A stretch of DNA of 64,000 nt from a virus. How positions within the stretch are numbered: position 1 is the stretch's first letter; each line of letters starts with the position of its first letter. The notes under the pieces are model-generated. The model ran no database searches, had not been told where the DNA came from, and saw nothing but the letters and a program-made list of their open reading frames with translations. The stretch lies in the IMG/VR virus record IMGVR_UViG_3300032285_001177. One strand, written 5' to 3'. The translations under genes were made by a program, and so were the position numbers. Of this stretch, positions 15,364 through 48,793 are shown piece after piece.

Positions 15364-15371
15364 TATAAATA
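15364..15371 (+). promoter_or_regulatory. T4-type late promoter TATAAATA
   Basis: Exact consensus just upstream of the gp2 ATG. Confidence 0.75.
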
Positions 15372-34941: not shown

Positions 34942-34976
34942 AAAAAAGCTATATAAATCATAGACTTATATAGCTT
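34942..34976 (-). terminator. 11-bp inverted repeat with T-tract after the cyclase gene (terminator or operator)
   Basis: AAGCTATATAA-N9-TTATATAGCTT followed by Ts on the minus strand. Confidence 0.5.
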
Positions 34977-35006: not shown

Positions 35007-37019
35007 CTATTTGGAGGTAGCCCTATATACGCCGTCCCATTCAGGGGGTAGGCCCTCCCGGATGCGCTCCAGCATCTTTTCATAGTAGTCACTAATGGTT
35101 ACATCGTCCCCCAGTGCCAAGAGCTCCTGGAGCCACCCCTCAGCTCTGGACCAGTTTCCTCTATAATACTCTTTGAGGAACTCATCATGCATATAACCCT
35201 GAGTCTTGCCAATCGTATACACCTTCACACCCTGAGTCTTTCCTTTAACCGCTATAGTATCCATCTCAACTACTGGGTATGTGTCTTTGACGAGCTCTGC
35301 TGTGCGTTGACCAAGGACGATTCGAACTCCATAATTCTTTGATTGGCCTTCAAGACGGCTTGCGAGGTTGACTGAGTCACCGAGGCAGGTATAGTCAAAA
35401 CGCTGCTCACTGCCCATATTACCCACAACGACGACCCCGGTATTAACACCCAGGCCCATACCAAAAGGAGGAATACCTTCTTTAGTAATCTCTTCATTGA
35501 ATCTATCCAAGTCATCTAACATCTCCAATCCTGTTTTAACTGCATTGATAGCATGATCTTTGTCATCCAATGGTGCATTCCAAAAAGCCATCTGCGCATC
35601 ACCGATGTACTTATCAAGTGTACCGTTGTTGTCTATGATCTTACGAGTCATAGCTGTCATGTAACGGTTCATAATCTTAGTTAGACCTTGTACATCTGCT
35701 CCATAGTGTTCAGAGATGGTAGTAAAGCCACGAACGTCTGTAAACATTATGCTTAGCTCGCGACTATCACCACCAAGTTGTAGCAGATCTGGGTTCTTTT
35801 GTAACTTCTCAACCATTGCTGGTGATAGGTATGTCCCAAATTGTTTCTTTATCCTAAGCTTTGCGTTAAGCTCGGTGATAAATTTGACAGTATAGGCATG
35901 AGCGTATACCACAGAAAGGATAATAATAGGGAAGAGAACATCAATAAGATAGCCGTAGTGAGTGAATATCGCGCTACCCACACTATAAAGACCGCCCAAA
36001 ATACCAAGAATAAGAATAATTCCATACTTCCACCTTGTTAATAAGATTAATACGATTGATAAGATGATGGTCGCAAGTACTTCTGCACCATCTGCCCAAT
36101 CAGGTCGCGATATGACTGTGCCTGATGTGAGTGTGTCTAGAACGTTCGCTTGAACGTAATGAGGAAAGAGTCCACCTCGAGGGGTTGCAACTGGGTTGTT
36201 GAGCCCACGGGCTGTGAGGCCAACGATGACGATACCTCCATCAAACGATTTGGGGAGGTCCACAAGAGAGTGTTGAATTGGACTCGCGCTCCAGTCAATC
36301 CAGATACGACCGATACTGTCGGTTTGGATCTTGGCGAATTTAGGGATGCGAACAGCTTCGATTCCTCTATCGGAAGATTTAACTTGGAAACTTGGGTCTC
36401 CGACTGCGACACGCAAAGTTTCGAGAGTAATACTTGGGTAGAGCAAGCCTCCGCTTGATACGACCATAGGGATACGGCGAGTAACACCATCAATTTCGGG
36501 TAAGACATTTACGACTCCTATTCCAGCAGCGCTGTTGTTAAATAATGATATATTAGGTTGGATACCAGGATAATCTACAGTGAAGTCATGTGCTGGTGAT
36601 CCGATCTCACTGACTCCAGGTCTAAATGCAAGTGCTTTTTGTTTCTGATCTGTTGCTACCTGAGGTAAGACGACAGGGTGTCTAGCAAGACTATCAGCCA
36701 AGTTGGCATCGCGTCCAAAGCGATCAGTGTCAGGCATAAAAAGATTAAAAACAACAAGACCAGCATTGCGTTGGTAAAGGTCCTCGATAATGTTTGCATA
36801 TTGGCTCCTTGGAAATGGAAATTGACCAAGTCTTTCAATTGATGCATCATCGATGTTTACGACATGGACTTGTTTAGATTGTACTACGGGTTTACTTGTA
36901 ATCAGTGTATCAAAGTATCTTAACCTAACTGACTGTACAAATGATGGATCAGTTGCTCTAACTCCTATTAATAAGGCTAAAGTTAATAGAGCAAACCATG
37001 GTGATAATAGTCTTTTCAT
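35007..37019 (-). CDS. CHASE2-domain membrane class III adenylate cyclase
   Basis: N-terminal TM; CHASE2 (VVNIDDASIERLGQFPFPRS...DGVTRRIP...HYVQANVL); three TMs; catalytic FTDVRGFT, DKYIGDA, YTCLGDSVNLASRLE. Confidence 0.93.
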   Translation of the reverse strand: MKRLLSPWFALLTLALLIGVRATDPSFVQSVRLRYFDTLITSKPVVQSKQVHVVNIDDASIERLGQFPFPRSQYANIIEDLYQRNAGLVVFNLFMPDTDRFGRDANLADSLARHPVVLPQVATDQKQKALAFRPGVSEIGSPAHDFTVDYPGIQPNISLFNNSAAGIGVVNVLPEIDGVTRRIPMVVSSGGLLYPSITLETLRVAVGDPSFQVKSSDRGIEAVRIPKFAKIQTDSIGRIWIDWSASPIQHSLVDLPKSFDGGIVIVGLTARGLNNPVATPRGGLFPHYVQANVLDTLTSGTVISRPDWADGAEVLATIILSIVLILLTRWKYGIILILGILGGLYSVGSAIFTHYGYLIDVLFPIIILSVVYAHAYTVKFITELNAKLRIKKQFGTYLSPAMVEKLQKNPDLLQLGGDSRELSIMFTDVRGFTTISEHYGADVQGLTKIMNRYMTAMTRKIIDNNGTLDKYIGDAQMAFWNAPLDDKDHAINAVKTGLEMLDDLDRFNEEITKEGIPPFGMGLGVNTGVVVVGNMGSEQRFDYTCLGDSVNLASRLEGQSKNYGVRIVLGQRTAELVKDTYPVVEMDTIAVKGKTQGVKVYTIGKTQGYMHDEFLKEYYRGNWSRAEGWLQELLALGDDVTISDYYEKMLERIREGLPPEWDGVYRATSK

Positions 37020-37147
37020 TGGATAACTTGTGTCTTCTTATGTTGTAAACTTTTCTTTAGTGATTTAAGCCAAAGCTTCTTTTGTTTCTTTTTTTGATGT
37101 CTAACGCATGCTAGATACATCTTACGAATTAATTTTTTAACTTTCAT
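37016..37147 (-). CDS. 43-aa Lys-rich peptide
   Basis: Not in the ORF track: MKVKKLIRKMYLACVRHQKKKQKKLWLKSLKKSLQHKKTQVIQ, with ATGA overlaps at both ends. Confidence 0.6.
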   Translation of the reverse strand: MKVKKLIRKMYLACVRHQKKKQKKLWLKSLKKSLQHKKTQVIQ

Positions 37148-37890
37148 TTTATCTTGTTCCAGTAAATTATCTTCCACTCACCCTCGTGAGTCTCGACCAA
37201 TGCTGAGCATGATTCTACCCAGTCCCCGTCATTCATATAGATAATATCACGTATTACTTTGATCTCAGGAGTATGTATATGACCACATATAACTCCATCA
37301 TAACCTTTCTTTTCACAGTAATCGGTTATGGTCTCTTCAAACTTAAACACAAAGCCTACAGCTTTCTTAACGTTTCGTTTAAGGAAACGGCTTAGTGACC
37401 AATAACTAAATCCTAATCTATGTCTTATATAGTTAAACTTAGTGTTTACCCATAATACAAAGTCATAGGCATGATCACCTAATACAGAGATCCACTTTGC
37501 CATACGAGTGATACCATCAAACATATCACCATGTGTTATAAGGAACCTACGACCATTCAAGTCTGTATACTCAGCTTGGTTACATAAGACTATGTTCTTA
37601 CCAAGCGAGAAGTAATTTACGAATGGTCTAAGGAACTCATCATGGTTTCCAGTAACATAAACAACCCTAGTCCCGCGTTTACTAAACCCTAAGATCTTAC
37701 GTATAACATTGGTATGGCTTTGCTTCCATCTCCATTTGTTTAGATGGATCTTCCAACCATCAATGATGTCACCTATAAGGAATAGGTTCTCACAATCGTT
37801 ATGCTTAAGGAAATTATTAAGCAGATCAGCCTTAGCTTCACCAGCCCCCAAGTGTGTATCTGATATACAAATGGTCTTATACTTTTTCAT
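37144..37890 (-). CDS. Calcineurin-like metallophosphoesterase, UDP-2,3-diacylglucosamine hydrolase (LpxH/YbbF)-like
   Basis: SDTHLG, GDIIDGW, GNHDE, HGDMFD, CGHIH, NDGDWVES. Confidence 0.85.
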   Translation of the reverse strand: MKKYKTICISDTHLGAGEAKADLLNNFLKHNDCENLFLIGDIIDGWKIHLNKWRWKQSHTNVIRKILGFSKRGTRVVYVTGNHDEFLRPFVNYFSLGKNIVLCNQAEYTDLNGRRFLITHGDMFDGITRMAKWISVLGDHAYDFVLWVNTKFNYIRHRLGFSYWSLSRFLKRNVKKAVGFVFKFEETITDYCEKKGYDGVICGHIHTPEIKVIRDIIYMNDGDWVESCSALVETHEGEWKIIYWNKIK

Positions 37891-37917
37891 TATATCCCAA
37901 TATTCAATTAAAGTAAA
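37889..37917 (-). promoter_or_regulatory. Phage promoter TTTACT-TTAA-N13-TATAAT overlapping the LpxH-like start codon
   Basis: Repeated motif with 17-nt spacer; the -10 reads TATAATG. Confidence 0.65.
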
Positions 37918-37918
37918 A

Positions 37919-38575
37919 TTAATTAATCTCTATAGCTGGGAATTCGCTCTTGTCAAATGCATGCGTTTCAATATATGCAGCTTCAGCTTCTTTACCTATC
38001 CATGGAGTTCCTGGTGGCAGATCTAATACTGTACGAGATACATCAATGATGAATATTAAACGCTTCTCATTTGTATTATTCCATGCGCTATGTAGCTTTT
38101 GGTTGTCAAAAGCAAATATATCATCCCATGTTACCTCTTCACTATCTACTTCAAACCCAATATCTCCTTCAGGTACTAATAGTGGAATGTGTATACGAAC
38201 CATCTTAGCTTCACGGTTTTCTATACCTGAATGTCTACGTATAACAGAGTTAGCATCAAACACGGCATAAGATGCACAGTTACAATCATCTCCATACTTT
38301 TCTACCAAAGCTGCAGCTGTTGGGAATTTAATCTTGGCTGCTTGACCTGCTAGTACAGCTGCAGCTTTAATCTCGTCAGATGATCCATCAAACTCATACT
38401 TAACACAATAGTTTACCCAACTGTCAGGTCTTGGATATTGGTTTCCGATATAGGTGTATCCACCTTCACCTTCATAGTTTGGATGCGCTGCAAAGAACTC
38501 ATCCTTTAATGCTTGTTGTATAGACTTAAGCTCATCGTATATCTTAAGTTCTCTTCCACGCCAAATGTTTTGCAT
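37919..38575 (-). CDS. Asp/Asn beta-hydroxylase-family dioxygenase 3
   Basis: IRRHSG...RIHIPL...FAFDNQKLHSAWN...RLIFIID. Confidence 0.82.
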   Translation of the reverse strand: MQNIWRGRELKIYDELKSIQQALKDEFFAAHPNYEGEGGYTYIGNQYPRPDSWVNYCVKYEFDGSSDEIKAAAVLAGQAAKIKFPTAAALVEKYGDDCNCASYAVFDANSVIRRHSGIENREAKMVRIHIPLLVPEGDIGFEVDSEEVTWDDIFAFDNQKLHSAWNNTNEKRLIFIIDVSRTVLDLPPGTPWIGKEAEAAYIETHAFDKSEFPAIEIN

Positions 38576-38576
38576 A

Positions 38577-39644
38577 TTAATTGCCCCTCTGATTAATCGT
38601 TATAGTATTCGTAGTGCTATCCTTTGACTGCACCGTTGTAGATGATCCGCCTTGATTAATATTTATTAGATATCCAGTGTCTTTATTTATTAATATCGTG
38701 GCATTTTGATTGTTCTTTGGCCTATTAACTACATAGTGAGATGTCTTATCGAATATGTAAGTTCCAGTCAATGCATTGTATCCGGTTTGGAATGCTGTTA
38801 GTAGTTGGTTATCAAACGCATTAGTTAGGTTCTCTCCATCGAGAAAGTTGATGTCTAGTTCTGCAAAGTCTTTGTACGGATCTTTATATACTTTAGCATC
38901 TAATAGGTTTGTATCCAGCCCATTAAAATCCAATGAAGATCCAGACTTATCTTTGATCTCTTCTGTAATCTGCTTAAGCACTTCTTTTGGAGGCTTAACG
39001 ATAAGCATGTTATCGATAGCTGACTCTGATAATAACAATGTTACTGGTTTGGATGGTTTAACTTCTGAGGATGAAGTAGTTGTAGCTTGGAATGCTTGGT
39101 TGAGTGTTACTGTACCGACTGCGGTGATGACATCGATCATGCCAACTGATCCGTCTTTGTTGGGAAGTAAGATGATGAGTGACTTTCCCACCTCGTCAAC
39201 CGTCATAGTAAAAGCAGTACCACGTACAGCCACAGTTGCGGTAGGTGTATTGATAGCCACATTTTTATTGTTCTCATGAGCGATATTACCTGATGCATAT
39301 CGTACTGTGCCCATAGCTACCTTAAGAGCTAGCTTACCAGCACCCTTATTTTTTGGATCATAGACGAAGTCATCTATGAGTAGTTTTGAATTCTCGGTTA
39401 CACGAACCTGTGTGTTGTCTTCAAAAGTAATACCGACCACACCTGCACCGGTCTGTACTAAATCATTTGAATCTATAGGGGATTTGGGTTTGGCATCCAC
39501 CGACGCCTTATTGTGCGTGATGGATGCATTCCCTTTTTGCTCAGTTACTGAACCAATTGCTGCTTGACTAGTGTTGTGTAACAGTAATAGCAGAGTTAGA
39601 ACCAGTAAGGTTGATAACCGCGCTATTTGCAATTGTGTTGCCAT
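38577..39644 (-). CDS. FecR-domain exported protein
   Basis: Signal peptide followed by DLVQTG...ITFEDNTQVRVTENSKLLID...GTVRYASG...INTPTATVAVRGTAF. Confidence 0.88.
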   Translation of the reverse strand: MATQLQIARLSTLLVLTLLLLLHNTSQAAIGSVTEQKGNASITHNKASVDAKPKSPIDSNDLVQTGAGVVGITFEDNTQVRVTENSKLLIDDFVYDPKNKGAGKLALKVAMGTVRYASGNIAHENNKNVAINTPTATVAVRGTAFTMTVDEVGKSLIILLPNKDGSVGMIDVITAVGTVTLNQAFQATTTSSSEVKPSKPVTLLLSESAIDNMLIVKPPKEVLKQITEEIKDKSGSSLDFNGLDTNLLDAKVYKDPYKDFAELDINFLDGENLTNAFDNQLLTAFQTGYNALTGTYIFDKTSHYVVNRPKNNQNATILINKDTGYLININQGGSSTTVQSKDSTTNTITINQRGN

Positions 39645-40263
39645 CTTGACTCACAGTGATATTATTATTATCGCCAATTACATTAGTATTGATATTATGA
39701 CCACCACCAGCTAGTGTACCAAAACCAGTTTGTGTAGTAATCACTTTATTTAGATCACCGGCTAAACTAAAGTTATTAGTGGTATAAGCACTGTTAACTG
39801 TGCTTGTAACAGTATTAGTGTCACCAGTTATGTCTAAGTTATAAATGTAATTACTTGAGTTACGTAATGTACCGATGTTTAAGATAGAACTGTTGTTCGA
39901 ACCATTGAATGTGATACCCAATGAACCAGAACTTGTACCAAAGTTACCATAGTTTAATAATGTAGAGTTGCTGTTACCAATTTGACTAATAGTAGCTGTT
40001 GAGTTACCACCAATAAAATTACCTAAGATGCTGTTGTTCATACCATCTTGTGTAATAGTCAAGAACATACTGTTACCATCAATTACAAATGGATCACCTG
40101 TTGTAGTGTTTGCACTTCCAACGTTGTTGTTAGAACCAGTTTGCGTAATAGTTACAGCTGATTGATCAGCATTTGTCTGATCTATATAGACTGAGTTGCC
40201 TCCGTCTGCCAATGCACTGCCTGCCAATAATAAACCCATCACGAGAGTGGTGGATCTTTTCAT
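39568..40263 (-). CDS. Curlin-repeat (CsgA/CsgB-like) secreted protein
   Basis: Signal peptide (ALA); repeats ITQTGSNN, ITQDGMNN, ISQIGNSN, ITFNGSNN, VSQDGN; Asn/Gly/Thr/Ser-rich; next to csgG. Confidence 0.78.
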   Translation of the reverse strand: MKRSTTLVMGLLLAGSALADGGNSVYIDQTNADQSAVTITQTGSNNNVGSANTTTGDPFVIDGNSMFLTITQDGMNNSILGNFIGGNSTATISQIGNSNSTLLNYGNFGTSSGSLGITFNGSNNSSILNIGTLRNSSNYIYNLDITGDTNTVTSTVNSAYTTNNFSLAGDLNKVITTQTGFGTLAGGGHNINTNVIGDNNNITVSQDGNTIANSAVINLTGSNSAITVTQH

Positions 40264-40265
40264 TG

Positions 40266-41033
40266 TTATTTCTCCTGTTTAAACTGCCACATTCCTTGTT
40301 TTTCACCTTGAATAATTAACTCTTCCACTGCCCTATCTGTAGCAGACTTGATAGCGTGGATACTTGCTTCAGTTTGTGATATACCAATCTCAGACTCAAA
40401 GTTTTTAGTGCCATTATCAAAGAACTTAAATACTGCAACACCTATCGTATAGCTTAATATAGTTTTCTGAGTATTCACTGTTAATAATACTTCACCCGTT
40501 TGTGTACTAATAGCACGAATGCTGATAGTCACTACGTCTTCCTGATACTGTTGATCAGGACCGATCCCGAGATATCGAACTCCAATACCACCTGTTCGTA
40601 TATTGGTGTCATAAGAAACTATGCCACCTTCAATCATCATGCCCGCATAGAGTATAGGACCAAGACCTTTATGATCATTTGCCTCTTCTCTTGCAGATCG
40701 AATTAGTTGTCTTTCTTTAAGTAGGTTATCAAGACCTACACGTTCTACGATCCTAAACCACTTACCATCACCAGCTTCTTGTAATGATTTGATTAATACT
40801 GTCTCGCCGCCTTGGGTTACAGCAGTTGAGAACTTAGCTATATTACCTGAATCTTTTCTTTGTCCAGTCTTATCACCAAACCCATATAGTGCAACTACGA
40901 TCTTACCATCCTTTGGTGGCGGGATGTGTTTCTTAACCTTAACTTCAGGTATAAGTTCTGCATCCTTCTTGATAGGGATCGGTCCGCATCCTGTCAAGAA
41001 AACACATAACAAAACTAACAGTAACTTTTTCAT
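40266..41033 (-). CDS. csgG: Curli secretion channel lipoprotein CsgG
   Basis: LTGC lipobox; VALYGFGDKTGQRK...FSTAVTQG...WFRIVERVGLDNLLKERQLIR...EGGIVSYDTN. Confidence 0.93.
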   Translation of the reverse strand: MKKLLLVLLCVFLTGCGPIPIKKDAELIPEVKVKKHIPPPKDGKIVVALYGFGDKTGQRKDSGNIAKFSTAVTQGGETVLIKSLQEAGDGKWFRIVERVGLDNLLKERQLIRSAREEANDHKGLGPILYAGMMIEGGIVSYDTNIRTGGIGVRYLGIGPDQQYQEDVVTISIRAISTQTGEVLLTVNTQKTILSYTIGVAVFKFFDNGTKNFESEIGISQTEASIHAIKSATDRAVEELIIQGEKQGMWQFKQEK

Positions 41034-41473
41034 TAGAATTTTAATGTTCCGATTGGTATATCTACTTGAGTTACAGTGCCATCTGCAGCCGTAACCGTTA
41101 ATGATATAGAGTCAGCATTCTTAACATATACTATGGTGTTACCTTCAATGGTAACGGTACCACTGTTCTGTGGATTCTCACCAAAAAGGTTATTGATTAA
41201 TTGTGTAGATAGTTGAGCATAGACTCTGCTCTCAAAGTTGTTAAGGAACTTAGCTAGGTTTGTATTTTTAGCTGCGGCGGCCGCGTCCTTTGCTGCTTGT
41301 AGCTTCGCGTCTTCTATTGCTTTCTTACGCGTGCTCTCTGTGTTCTCGATCGTTTGTACGTGAGAACTATATCCTATCCCGTTGAAGGATGGAGACTTAA
41401 ACTGATACGTAAGCTCCGCATGGGCGCTACTTGTCGTTATCAGTAAAAATATTAGGCTTCTTGTGAACTTCAT
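41033..41473 (-). CDS. csgF: Curli assembly protein CsgF
   Basis: Signal peptide then ELTYQFKSPSFNG; directly upstream of csgG. Confidence 0.85.
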   Translation of the reverse strand: MKFTRSLIFLLITTSSAHAELTYQFKSPSFNGIGYSSHVQTIENTESTRKKAIEDAKLQAAKDAAAAAKNTNLAKFLNNFESRVYAQLSTQLINNLFGENPQNSGTVTIEGNTIVYVKNADSISLTVTAADGTVTQVDIPIGTLKF

Positions 41474-41711
41474 CTTGTTCCTTGTCTCTTAGAGATAAAA
41501 TGACGTTCACTTTTTGATTAAGTCTAATAAGATCGTTATCTAACATCCTAACACGATCGATCAGTTCAATCAATACCTTATTTGATTCACCTATTACAGG
41601 GTCGATTTCCTCAGTTACCCACTTCCAAATATAGTAGACGAAGTACCCTAATCCGCCTGCTGCTATAATGGGAAACCCATACTTATTAACTAAATCTGCA
41701 AACTCTTCCAT
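41427..41711 (-). CDS. Small single-TM coiled-coil protein B
   Basis: YGFPIIAAGGLGYFVYYIW followed by LIDRVRMLDNDLIRL; paralog of 41860..42138. Confidence 0.7.
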   Translation of the reverse strand: MEEFADLVNKYGFPIIAAGGLGYFVYYIWKWVTEEIDPVIGESNKVLIELIDRVRMLDNDLIRLNQKVNVILSLRDKEQDEVHKKPNIFTDNDK

Positions 41712-41860
41712 TATTCTTCCGTTGGTAGTGGATCTATAACCCAACATCTTAGTTGTCCACCAATAATCATACAGTTTGGTGGTACATGTATTCTCTTCTT
41801 ACGTGGTTGTTCAGCGTATGCTATGCCACTAATCAATAATAGTATGATTAATAGTCTCAT
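41711..41860 (-). CDS. 49-aa secreted peptide with a Cys pair
   Basis: Not in the ORF track: MRLLIILLLISGIAYA|EQPRKKRIHVPPNCMIIGGQLRCWVIDPLPTEE, with TAATG overlaps at both ends. Confidence 0.72.
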   Translation of the reverse strand: MRLLIILLLISGIAYAEQPRKKRIHVPPNCMIIGGQLRCWVIDPLPTEE

Positions 41861-42138
41861 TAATCTCTTCTTGCATCTGATTGCTCAGCTCTTGCAATCC
41901 TATCTAGATCAGGTGGGATGCCTAATGCATGACTTACTTTTGTATCAATACGGATAACATCATGGTTCATGGCTGCTACACGTCTATCCAAAGCTTTGAT
42001 AATATTTGACATGCCCTTTACAGATCCAGTAACACCATCGAGGATGAACTTAACTGTAAGGAACACAAAGTAACCTGCCGCACCAGCTGCAGCAATTGGA
42101 AACCCTAAATCGGCAACTAGTTTTAGTATATCTCCCAT
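41860..42138 (-). CDS. Small single-TM coiled-coil protein A
   Basis: LGFPIAAAGAAGYFVFLTV followed by LDRRVAAMNHDVIRI. Confidence 0.7.
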   Translation of the reverse strand: MGDILKLVADLGFPIAAAGAAGYFVFLTVKFILDGVTGSVKGMSNIIKALDRRVAAMNHDVIRIDTKVSHALGIPPDLDRIARAEQSDARRD

Positions 42139-42143
42139 ATACC

Positions 42144-42151
42144 TATTTATA
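42144..42151 (-). promoter_or_regulatory. T4-type late promoter TATAAATA heading the csg locus
   Basis: Exact consensus, 6 nt before the first ATG. Confidence 0.78.
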
Positions 42152-42174: not shown

Positions 42175-43473
42175 CTACTTATCTTTTTTTACAAACCCAA
42201 CACCTCTATTTGTTATAGATTCTTGGGCTCTTAGTTCTCTTGTTTTTAACATATCAACTTTACGTACAACAGGGTCAGCATCATACTTTTCATTTAATCT
42301 ATCTATTGAATTCAAAGGCTTATGATTAAGTTCTTCAACCTCATCTTCAATAGTTTTAGATGGACTATTGTATTCATTGATGTTTATACCTAAAGATGGT
42401 TCTTCAGGTGGAGGGGGTGGCGGTGTTGGTATTACTTCTTCATAATGGTCACCGTCATTACCATTCTGTCCGATTATATCAGTTCTTATATCATCCTTAG
42501 GCCATTCAACCTGAGCGGGTTCTTCGGGTCTTGGATCAAAGTCTTCTGTAGCTAAAAGAGTATCATCCCAATTTGCCCACGGATTCTCACTCTTTGGTTG
42601 CCATACTTGTTCCCATCCGTCTGGTGTCCTTCCAGCTAAAGCATCTGCATAACCTTTAACTACTTCTGGATCATTTTCTTTTTCTACTATTGGTTCAATA
42701 GGCTTTCTTTTTTTTAGAGACCAGTTAACTGCGACTAACATAAGAACTGCAAGAGGATCAAATACTGCTACGATCATGAGGATAACAATCCTGACCGCCT
42801 TCTCTAAAAGAGTTTGGTCAAGACTGTCACCATATATCAATGCTGCAATATATTTTATTGGCCCGACTTCGGCTTCGACTTTCCTGAGTTGACTTGCCAC
42901 TGGTTGCCTTTCTTCATTGAGCTTCGCGATCTTTGTCTGCGAGGCTTCGATTGTGGCGTAGAGGGATTTGCGTTCTTTGGATTGGCCTTTTCTGATCGAT
43001 ATTGATCTAGAGACACCACTGTCGTCGGTGGCTCCGGCTGTACGTGACAAGGTTTGGTCAACTTGCGAATCCAGTTGAGAAAGAGATTTACGAGCTTCAT
43101 TAATTGTTTCCTTTTCTGTCTTGAGTTTCTCATCTATTAGTGATAGTTTTGATGAGACATCTCCAGTTGGGACTGCTTGATCTAAGTGTGCCTTAGATAA
43201 GAATCCAAATATGCCCATCGATGTGAGCGTCATAAGAATGATTAGTGCTGAGGTAAAATATATCTTGAATAGTCTTGGAACCTCCTTCCAGTTTCTATAT
43301 AGCCATGATGCTACCACTAACTTAGACACTTCTAAGATAGATCCCATCACCATGATAGGGATTGCTGCCGCAGCAAAGATTGCTACCAAACCTGCGATAG
43401 AATAGAACGCAGCGATGCAACTCAGCGAGATAGCTGAGACAAACATTACACTGGTCATTACTTTATCGTTCAT
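42175..43473 (-). CDS. Multi-TM coiled-coil membrane protein with acidic Pro-rich tail
   Basis: Three N-terminal TMs (GIFGFLSKAH), coiled coil, EVGPIKYIA...FDPLAV TM. Confidence 0.65.
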   Translation of the reverse strand: MNDKVMTSVMFVSAISLSCIAAFYSIAGLVAIFAAAAIPIMVMGSILEVSKLVVASWLYRNWKEVPRLFKIYFTSALIILMTLTSMGIFGFLSKAHLDQAVPTGDVSSKLSLIDEKLKTEKETINEARKSLSQLDSQVDQTLSRTAGATDDSGVSRSISIRKGQSKERKSLYATIEASQTKIAKLNEERQPVASQLRKVEAEVGPIKYIAALIYGDSLDQTLLEKAVRIVILMIVAVFDPLAVLMLVAVNWSLKKRKPIEPIVEKENDPEVVKGYADALAGRTPDGWEQVWQPKSENPWANWDDTLLATEDFDPRPEEPAQVEWPKDDIRTDIIGQNGNDGDHYEEVIPTPPPPPPEEPSLGININEYNSPSKTIEDEVEELNHKPLNSIDRLNEKYDADPVVRKVDMLKTRELRAQESITNRGVGFVKKDK

Positions 43474-43751
43474 CTTTTCTTATTCCTTATTCGCGCTTCT
43501 GCAATGAGAGCGTCTTGTATACGGATCTTATCGTCTTGATCTTTAATCTTTTTATTCTGTTGATCTATGCGCCTGTTAGCTATCTGCAACTCTTCGTATA
43601 CTCCTTGAGTTACTTGTGCTTGTTGGTTTAATAGAACGTTTAATGATACTATCTTACTATCATATTCATTTAACTTGCATACACCCACTATAACGCCGTA
43701 TACACATAACAATGATAGTACTACTAACACATAACCTATAATCTTACTCAT
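43470..43751 (-). CDS. Single-TM coiled-coil protein
   Basis: N-terminal TM followed by a heptad pattern. Confidence 0.55.
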   Translation of the reverse strand: MSKIIGYVLVVLSLLCVYGVIVGVCKLNEYDSKIVSLNVLLNQQAQVTQGVYEELQIANRRIDQQNKKIKDQDDKIRIQDALIAEARIRNKKR

Positions 43752-44172
43752 ATTTAATATGACTCCTATGTACCCGACAGTTTACGATACCGTTGTACCA
43801 CATGTCAGGATGTTCAAGCACTTCATTAATCATCTGGAACTTGGCCTCAAAGTATGAGGCTGTCCCCTTAGATAGACAAAACATCAGGATTTCCCGTTTG
43901 AACTTATCTTCTCCGAGTGTTTTGACATCATCGATAACTTCCTTTGATGAAGACCAGTAGGTCTTCCAGTCCGATTCGATCTTACTTCGGATCTTCTTTT
44001 TCTTCTTGACACCGCTCTTAAGAGTAACCGTTCTTGTAGCAGTCTTAGAAAATTTAGTGAGTTTTTTACCAATATACTTTTTATTGGTAACGCAGTTAGT
44101 AATGATATATACAAACCCAACATATTTATCGTCAATAGTCTCAACGGGCACATTGTTGTAGGTCCATGTCAT
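43744..44172 (-). CDS. Short GIY-YIG nuclease-like protein
   Basis: GFVYIITN...KYIGKK...WKTYWSS...FKREIL...E...YN. Confidence 0.75.
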   Translation of the reverse strand: MTWTYNNVPVETIDDKYVGFVYIITNCVTNKKYIGKKLTKFSKTATRTVTLKSGVKKKKKIRSKIESDWKTYWSSSKEVIDDVKTLGEDKFKREILMFCLSKGTASYFEAKFQMINEVLEHPDMWYNGIVNCRVHRSHIKYE

Positions 44173-48785: not shown

Positions 48786-48793
48786 TATTTATA
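48786..48793 (-). promoter_or_regulatory. T4-type late promoter TATAAATA
   Basis: Exact consensus overlapping the galE stop, 5 nt before the next ATG. Confidence 0.55.

Follow-up and report, generated by a model that had tools for sequence, protein, structure and literature searches.

Wittmers et al. (2022) published a whole block of curli-type genes from marine phages, comprising two small genes labeled "HK", CsgF, CsgG, CsgA/B, FecR, a second CsgA/B, and an adenylate cyclase (PMC9599517). They reported the block from Pelagibacter myo- and podophages, with alphaproteobacterial affinities and transfer between phage families, together with gene co-occurrence, matched gene frequencies over 65 ocean stations, and metatranscriptome expression, and they viewed FecR and the cyclase as putative regulators that are absent from bacterial curli operons (PMC9599517). 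The curli part has also been discussed by Zaragoza-Solas et al. 2020 (PMC7029224) and Buchholz et al. 2022 (PMC9004378). Here, we analyzed such a locus in the window, by which we mean the whole 64,000-nucleotide (nt) stretch of the viral record IMGVR_UViG_3300032285_001177. The window comes from a T4-like marine myophage and encodes baseplate, tail fiber, and ribonucleotide reductase genes; the cultured phages nearest to it are Pelagibacter phage HTVC008M and Methylophilales phage Melnitz. By gene content and order, the locus belongs to the published pelagiphage viral type VIII secretion system (T8SS) module, somewhat rearranged. A preliminary description made from the DNA alone was correct that csgF and csgG are known from some marine T4-like phages, yet it understated the prior knowledge, since the whole block was already in print (PMC9599517).

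Results

Gene content and transcription frame of the block

The block lies on the minus strand and runs from 42151 to 34946, with junctions that are mostly overlaps or gaps of a few bases. Its core features are as follows.

42144-42151, minus strand: late-promoter-type motif TATAAATA, an exact copy, 5 nt ahead of the ATG of the first gene
41860-42138, minus strand: transmembrane (TM) protein A, 92 amino acids (aa), with an N-terminal hydrophobic helix and a charged helical tail; phrog_18771, E value (E) 9e-35
41427-41711, minus strand: TM protein B, 94 aa, paralogue of A; phrog_18771, E 1.8e-34
41033-41473, minus strand: CsgF with signal peptide; Pfam CsgF, E 4.6e-17; phrog_35372
40266-41033, minus strand: CsgG outer-membrane lipoprotein pore; Pfam E 7e-54
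39568-40263, minus strand: secreted CsgA-like curlin subunit with signal peptide; Pfam Curlin_rpt, E 2.7e-6
38577-39644, minus strand: exported FecR-domain protein with signal peptide; Pfam FecR, E 5.9e-9
35007-37019, minus strand: CHASE2-three TM-class III (IIIb-type) adenylate cyclase; phrog_35576 over its full length; CHASE2 and Guanylate_cyc
34946-34976, minus strand: intrinsic-terminator-like hairpin (a stem of 14 bp and then a T run), 30 nt past the cyclase stop

Pfam searches confirmed the gene identities, on the minus strand, at the coordinates that the preliminary description had assigned. CsgF, CsgG, a curlin-repeat protein, and an exported FecR protein were thus all recovered, and its remark that CsgE, CsgD, and an extracytoplasmic function (ECF) sigma factor are not evident also held: the ten block proteins had no Pfam match to csgE, csgC, or csgD, and Pfam found no sigma factor among the block proteins.

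With the late motif at one end, the terminator-like hairpin at the other, and overlapping genes between, the block has a single transcription frame, which agrees with the earlier view of one late promoter ahead of tightly overlapping genes. In 53 of 95 distinct relatives, an exact TATAAATA precedes the TM-A-family gene at a distance of no more than 60 nt. The motif is not enriched in the window (9 copies against 7 expected), and nearly all copies are located just 5' of start codons on the coding strand. The argument for a late promoter relies on the position of TATAAATA and its conservation in relatives and not on its count; by analogy with T4, we infer that the copy at 42144-42151 acts as one. 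As a separate observation, TATAAATA ends 4 to 5 nt before a start codon at 15364-15371 (plus strand), 42144-42151 (minus strand), and 48786-48793 (minus strand), and the remaining copies are 18 to 59 nt 5' of a start codon. Were the three close motifs to act as late promoters, the mRNAs would have almost no leader, and the block mRNA would be among them because TATAAATA ends 5 nt before the ATG in this clade.

Linkage of the block genes across phages

We surveyed IMG/VR with CsgG and the cyclase as anchors and located the proteins of the window in the flanks. Linkage was counted in CsgG contigs with at least 7 kilobases (kb) downstream (n = 42) and in cyclase contigs having 7 kb of flank on each side (n = 25). 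All 42 CsgG-anchored contigs contained FecR and the cyclase, and 41 contained both TM genes and CsgF, the exception being a contig without upstream sequence. Likewise, both TM genes, CsgF, CsgG, and FecR were present in every cyclase-anchored contig (25/25). The set remained intact even where the cyclase was inverted or the TM pair had moved to the far side of the cyclase. Moreover, across 50,697 GenBank phage records, CsgG and the cyclase were found in the same two species; the related GenBank phage Mosig matched neither CsgG nor the cyclase, and an extra CsgG match came from a 1.5-kb unannotated "Salmonella phage" record. Altogether, these data support the conclusion that the block genes behave as one inherited unit, and the co-occurrence of csgF, csgG, curlin, fecR, and cyclase genes that the preliminary description had proposed to survey was borne out. 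The module was also present in complete viral genomes of 160, 236, and 337 kb (G001, G002, and G003, behind loci L094, L112, and L157) and is therefore not confined to the ~140-kb pelagimyophages.

Bacterial relatives of the cyclase, FecR, and CsgG

The nearest cellular cyclases were 30 to 37% identical to the phage enzyme over the full length and almost all alphaproteobacterial. For the neighborhood counts, we took the nearest CHASE2 cyclase loci flanked on each side by at least 8 kb (n = 50) and treated genes within 10 kb as neighbors. A phage-type FecR gene accompanied the cyclase in 23 loci, a type I secretion pair of ATP-binding cassette (ABC) and HlyD proteins in 19, and a FecR gene or a type I secretion pair in 34. 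In about ten loci, a protein of 1,200 to 2,100 aa with an N-terminal FecR domain ends 4 to 98 nt before the CHASE2 cyclase, and the repeats of these giant FecR-headed adhesins are cadherin-like, Big_9, LamG, or RTX. That FecR and CHASE2-cyclase genes co-occur in bacteria, which the preliminary description took as established, is evident from both the 23 loci and the FecR adhesins. The type I secretion and FecR-adhesin context of the closest bacterial cyclases is new here. In Burkholderia, exported FecR proteins adjoin CHASE2 histidine kinases in operons (PMC5192318).

None of 80 bacterial cyclase loci contained CsgG, CsgF, curlin, or the TM proteins, and CsgG was not found in five bacterial genomes carrying the nearest cyclases. 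The nearest alphaproteobacterial csgG loci, present in 7 of 401 genomes, encode a CsgG 41 to 47% identical to that of the phage in plain csgF-csgG-curlin operons; these seven loci had no FecR, cyclase, or TM-A/B genes. Judged by gene content, the phage block is a chimera that, within the data examined, occurs in phages alone. It joins a curli core to FecR and a CHASE2 cyclase, a pair with bacterial relatives that accompany another envelope-spanning secretion channel and its retained substrate.

Two side observations concern the bacterial loci. The giant FecR-adhesin loci (L162, L164, L165, L168, L170, L174, L181, L185, and L208) come from Bradyrhizobium and relatives. In the marine alphaproteobacterial single-cell genome AG-337-E20 (L207:3580-20994), a TolC-like protein, an ABC protein with a C39-like domain, and a fusion of HlyD to a cyclic-nucleotide-monophosphate (cNMP)-binding domain are followed, in this gene order, by a CHASE2 adenylate cyclase; near the cyclase is also a FecR-RTX protein, which has an ABC/HlyD pair of its own. 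By its domains, this locus looks like cyclic AMP (cAMP)-gated type I secretion tied to a CHASE2 sensor; a literature search found no publication on such a cNMP-HlyD/CHASE2 cyclase arrangement.

The FecR-domain protein

The 5' end of the FecR gene overlaps the curlin gene by 77 nt. The predicted structure (alignment of 26 homologues) has a beta-rich N-terminal domain at about residues 27 to 213, with a predicted local distance difference test (pLDDT) score of 80 to 90, followed by a disordered acidic linker (residues 214 to 282) and a small beta domain (residues 285 to 352). The N-terminal domain matches the CCSSD (cell-surface-signaling domain) of PupR (Z score [Z] 15.0) and BDI_1681, a Bacteroides anti-sigma factor (Z 14.1). 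Furthermore, residues 27 to 122 match structure 5ix9 (Z 7.4; root mean square deviation, 2.1 Å over 73 residues; 27% identity). This structure shows the N-terminal, periplasmic domain of MpIBP, a giant adhesin; the domain is proposed to plug the TolC-like pore and retain the adhesin on the cell, and it served as the template for the LapA retention module. A placement of the 5ix9 match in the C-terminal domain was rejected, as a second alignment puts the match at residues 27 to 122. When solved structures were searched by sequence, the FecR protein had no match, and its C-terminal part gave designer-repeat noise only.

In this protein, the signal peptide is followed directly by the FecR domain; there is no cytoplasmic anti-sigma domain and no further membrane anchor. 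Because the cytoplasmic anti-sigma part is missing, the protein is not an anti-sigma factor. Its modeled fold suits a periplasmic partner of an outer-membrane channel, and the new point is that, in the model, the N-terminal half resembles the plug of type 1-secreted adhesins.

The small C-terminal beta domain had only weak Ig-like structural matches. The extreme C terminus carries the motif N-x-I-x-I-x-Q, which resembles the end of the curlin protein; the motif and Gln352 are conserved in 26 FecR homologues down to 31% identity, with Gln352 invariant. A curlin repeat at this position was considered and rejected (BLASTP E 0.64; no Pfam Curlin_rpt match; hhalign E 0.013, probability 3%), and the similarity of the motif to curlin is a lead only and not statistically secure.

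The CHASE2 adenylate cyclase

Pfam assigned CHASE2 to residues 13 to 325 of the cyclase (E 3.2e-40) and also matched Guanylate_cyc (E 2.4e-21). Hydrophobic segments read from the sequence at about residues 5 to 22 and 315 to 382 predict an N-terminal TM helix, a periplasmic CHASE2 domain, three further TM helices, and a cytoplasmic output domain. The metal-binding residues D428 and D474, the substrate residues K470 and T544, and the transition-state residues N551 and R555 are all present, in register with class III cyclases of solved structure. At the position of K470, the adenylate cyclase form of Cya2 (6fht) likewise has Lys, which is Glu in native Cya2 (2w01). The preliminary description had held the catalytic residues to be intact (D428, D474, N551, and R555), with Lys and Thr (K470 and T544) pointing to ATP, and the alignment agrees; the enzyme looks active and ATP specific. 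This catalytic set is kept across eight phage homologues, except for Asn to Ser and Thr to Asp in Melnitz and Thr to Ser in HTVC008M.

CsgF, CsgG, and curlin

By eye, the mature N terminus of CsgF resembles the CsgG-binding segment of E. coli CsgF. The Pfam CsgF score is 62.9 bits against a cut-off of 25.8; a sequence search of solved structures gave no direct match to CsgF chains, only designer-repeat noise. CsgG aligns full length to E. coli CsgG structures (E 2.9e-49), with the lipobox Cys in register (LTGC, versus LSGC in E. coli) and the FSTAV constriction-loop motif kept.

An AlphaFold model of the curlin protein from an alignment of 25 phage homologues (predicted template modeling score, 0.80; pLDDT, 83.5) has about nine strand-turn-strand repeats. 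Its top structural match was the curli subunit CsgA (8c50; Z 19.7 over 197 residues), which outranked other beta-solenoids. Foldseek by itself gave no significant match for this model, and CsgA came first in a second structure comparison. The phage therefore encodes a fiber subunit besides the pore. Wittmers et al. likewise conclude that a fiber subunit is present (PMC9599517), and the Melnitz paper (Buchholz et al. 2022) states that csgA/B are lacking (PMC9004378). A separate nucleator in the role of CsgB was not identified, and the window has no second curlin gene.

Small membrane proteins

TM proteins A and B form one phage-only family, phrog_18771. TM A is orthologous to HTVC008M gp11 and Melnitz gp97, and TM B to HTVC008M gp12 and Melnitz gp98; TM A itself was found in 41/42 CsgG-anchored and 25/25 cyclase-anchored contigs. 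Pfam and NCBIfam searches of A and B gave no match at E values up to 0.01. A protein atlas search returned solely viral proteins of unassigned function, with YvrJ at 0.89 as a lead. TM A, and not B, had a marginal match to the holin phrog_4898 (E 0.0045); no endolysin is adjacent to the TM genes, and the block contains neither endolysin nor spanin.

Wittmers et al. label small genes at this position histidine kinases (PMC9599517). We rejected that label: the proteins are 92 to 94 aa long and have no HisKA or HATPase_c match and no conserved His. One His in an NHD motif of TM A is the only candidate phosphoacceptor; Melnitz gp97 has Asn at this position, and TM B lacks it. Going by these sequences, the histidine kinase label is not supported, a point that is new here.

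The start of TM B was originally placed at 41747. The phrog_18771 match begins at residue 14 of that longer open reading frame (ORF) and a TAATG overlap lies at 41711, so that the ATG at 41711, giving 94 aa, is most likely the start.

Accessory genes and neighbors

Besides its core, the block contains four further ORFs, one between the TM genes and three between FecR and the cyclase.

41711-41860, minus strand: 49-aa ORF, lineage specific, with a signal-peptide-like start and two Cys
37919-38575, minus strand: Asp/Arg-hydroxylase-type dioxygenase, distantly LpxO/OlsC-like; Asp_Arg_Hydrox, E 1.3e-16
37144-37890, minus strand: calcineurin-like metallophosphoesterase, distantly LpxH-like; Metallophos, E 2.2e-13
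37016-37147, minus strand: 43-aa Lys-rich ORF, read from the sequence, with ATGA overlaps with the LpxH-like stop and the cyclase start

The secreted Cys-pair peptide of the preliminary description corresponds to the 49-aa ORF, which does exist with its signal-peptide-like start; it is not a conserved part of the module, because it has a single homologue (L012, 61% identity) among 161 related loci. In relatives, the two TM genes are too close together to fit it between them.

The hydroxylase and the LpxH-like gene ahead of the cyclase are present as described, but they are variable cargo outside the module core: the hydroxylase had no homologue in 161 related loci, and the LpxH-like gene was near the module in 3 of 25 to 9 of 48 contigs. 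Both are only distantly LpxO- or LpxH-like, with NCBIfam scores far under the equivalog cut-offs. A role of the LpxH-like gene as a cAMP phosphodiesterase was considered and rejected, as its LpxH and YfcE-type NCBIfam matches are weak and it is not a conserved module member. The ATGA overlaps of the 43-aa ORF suggest translational coupling into the cyclase.

The FecR-cyclase gap is a recurrent insertion hotspot inside the module. Elsewhere it contains a second curlin gene (Melnitz), a PA14-curlin fusion (HTVC008M), DUF4337, a RimK-like ATP-grasp ligase, or uroporphyrinogen decarboxylase. Unrelated gap cargo was seen at L008:12470-14313 and L058:12577-14594. HTVC008M gp18 (L002:5466-6791), annotated as a hypothetical protein, combines a PA14 sugar-binding domain with curlin repeats, which suggests a fiber subunit displaying a lectin.

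Directly upstream of the module, 42175-43473 (minus strand) encodes a 432-aa protein of unassigned family that starts with TM helices and also has a long coiled coil and a region rich in Pro; a homologue lies near the module in 12 of 25 related contigs. A SegE-type GIY-YIG homing-endonuclease-like gene at 43744-44172 (minus strand) is located between the neighborhood of the module and nrdB.

Discussion

We rate as about even the chance that the pore, the FecR protein, and the CHASE2 cyclase are one functionally coupled sensor, and the relay from outer membrane through periplasm to cytoplasm that the preliminary description had proposed is plausible. Late in infection, the phage would make a CsgG/CsgF outer-membrane pore and export a CsgA-like curlin through it. 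The exported FecR protein and the inner-membrane CHASE2 adenylate cyclase would form a sensor pair, which probably came from alphaproteobacterial loci with type I secretion genes and FecR-headed giant adhesins. Most likely, the FecR protein resides in the periplasm, at or under the pore, with a long disordered linker that may run through the channel. From there, the protein would convey to the CHASE2 domain how the pore or fiber stands, or a cue entering through the pore, and so set cAMP synthesis; the physical contact, the direction of the signal, the cue, and the effect of cAMP are what we infer in this scheme. In its favor, the genes are one inherited unit, the FecR/CHASE2 pairing recurs in bacteria, and the modeled FecR fold fits.

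Several observations weigh against a coupled sensor. The cNMP-binding domain PF00027 was not found in five related phage genomes, and this failed search for a cAMP receiver is itself new. In Sinorhizobium meliloti, the FecR-domain protein SMc02177, which one study lists with CHASE2-cyclase-dependent genes, was dispensable there for signal perception (PMC5498481). The Melnitz cyclase has Ser for the catalytic Asn. Unrelated cargo genes stand between FecR and the cyclase in the window, and a sigma-70-like internal promoter match (37917-37889) lies just 5' of the LpxH-like gene. Among contigs with only the upstream flank, 2 of 48 have the cyclase at least 7 to 10 kb from any csg gene, with gp45, gp44, RegA, Hsp20, peroxiredoxin, and glycosyltransferase as neighbors. 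Finally, all phage copies may go back to one acquisition, and the co-occurrence would then partly reflect shared ancestry.

In the most probable of the alternatives, one hypervariable island merely houses two independent functions: adhesive fibers for sibling capture or for shielding against other phages and cAMP that rewires host metabolism. The unrelated cargo in the gap hotspot, the internal promoter-like site ahead of the LpxH-like gene, and the two contigs with the cyclase in another context all speak for it, as do the report of Wittmers et al. that the curli region does not always include FecR and the cyclase (PMC9599517) and the PA14 sugar-binding domain and curlin repeats of HTVC008M gp18, which suit adhesion. 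Nonetheless, the near-complete co-occurrence survives inversions and insertions, GenBank phages show CsgG and the cyclase together and Mosig matched neither, and FecR is separately linked to CHASE2 sensors in bacteria. Independent functions are therefore, in our judgment, unlikely.

A signal running the other way, with cAMP controlling secretion or assembly of the fiber, or a FecR/CHASE2 pair that senses a periplasmic solute such as iron admitted by an ungated CsgG, is suggested by the cNMP-binding domain fused to a type I adaptor beside a homologous cyclase in a marine alphaproteobacterium, by the absence of the pore gate CsgE, and by the discussion of import and iron by Wittmers et al. (PMC9599517). 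Against this, the five related phage genomes yielded no cNMP-binding domain, the FecR domain is established for FecR/PupR as a protein-protein signaling fold and is no known iron binder, and the T8SS is not known to have an inner-membrane motor as a target for cAMP; we find this quite unlikely. That the module times lysis, with CsgGF as a gated secretin- or pinholin-like channel, the TM pair as holin and antiholin, and cAMP as the tuner (an extension of Buchholz et al. 2022, who proposed lysis timing in print for Melnitz [PMC9004378]), would fit an operon starting at a late-type motif and the weak holin match of TM A but is very unlikely, because a complete secreted CsgA-like subunit would be superfluous for a lysis pore, CsgG sits in the outer membrane and cannot depolarize the inner one, the holin match is under a useful threshold with only phage proteins of unassigned function in the atlas, and the block has no endolysin or spanin.

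A more specific form of the coupled sensor is a pore-threaded FecR tether, in which the N-terminal domain would rest against CHASE2 in the periplasm, the ~70-residue linker would pass through CsgG/CsgF, and the C-terminal domain with its curlin-like terminal motif would sit on the fiber, so that pull, growth, or loss of the fiber would change cAMP. We regard this version as distinctly doubtful. If true, the phage would have used a type VIII pore to recreate a surface-sensing scheme of bacteria that is itself undescribed, in which a type 1-secreted adhesin with a FecR-like periplasmic plug would be coupled to a CHASE2 cyclase.

Phages of this kind are abundant in the ocean, and their hosts (SAR11, OM43, and relatives) reportedly lack both the surface structure and the second-messenger enzyme that the module provides. 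Should the pore, fiber, FecR protein, and cyclase indeed form one sensor, this would explain the retention of the block across phage families and could reveal what CHASE2 domains sense. The bacterial neighborhoods, with type I secretion, FecR adhesins, a CHASE2 cyclase, and in one case a cNMP-binding adaptor, offer a concrete model that can be tested in phages and bacteria alike.

Comparison with known systems

FecR/PupR anti-sigma factors share the periplasmic domain fold of the phage FecR protein (Z 14 to 15). Unlike those regulators, the phage block has no anti-sigma domain, membrane anchor, ECF sigma factor, or TonB-dependent transducer. In the LapA/MpIBP retention module, the RIN plug (5ix9) is like residues 27 to 122 of the phage protein, which are followed by a flexible linker, as in LapA; however, the phage FecR protein is Sec exported and small, its putative pore is CsgG, and no LapG or LapD genes were seen.

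The alphaproteobacterial curli operon shares with the block the csgF, csgG, curlin order and the absence of CsgC, CsgD, and CsgE, and it differs in that FecR, the cyclase, and TM-A/B are absent from the seven loci. The alphaproteobacterial CHASE2 cyclase loci, which by their domains are of the S. meliloti CyaD1/CyaD2/CyaK type, resemble the phage block in having a FecR domain and an envelope-spanning channel nearby. Their channel is type I (TolC-like, ABC, and HlyD), whereas that of the phage is CsgG, and their FecR domain is fused to giant cadherin or RTX proteins, whereas that of the phage stands alone.

The closest system is the pelagiphage viral T8SS (HTVC008M gp11-19 and Melnitz gp97-104). 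The window differs from it in lacking a second curlin, in having the hydroxylase, the LpxH-like gene, and the 43-aa ORF in the gap, and in the 49-aa ORF between the TM genes, and its proteins are only 38 to 47% identical to those of the two cultured phages. Nevertheless, the two have the same set in the same order (two small TM proteins, CsgF, CsgG, curlin, FecR, and cyclase), and in both the nearest cellular relatives are alphaproteobacterial.

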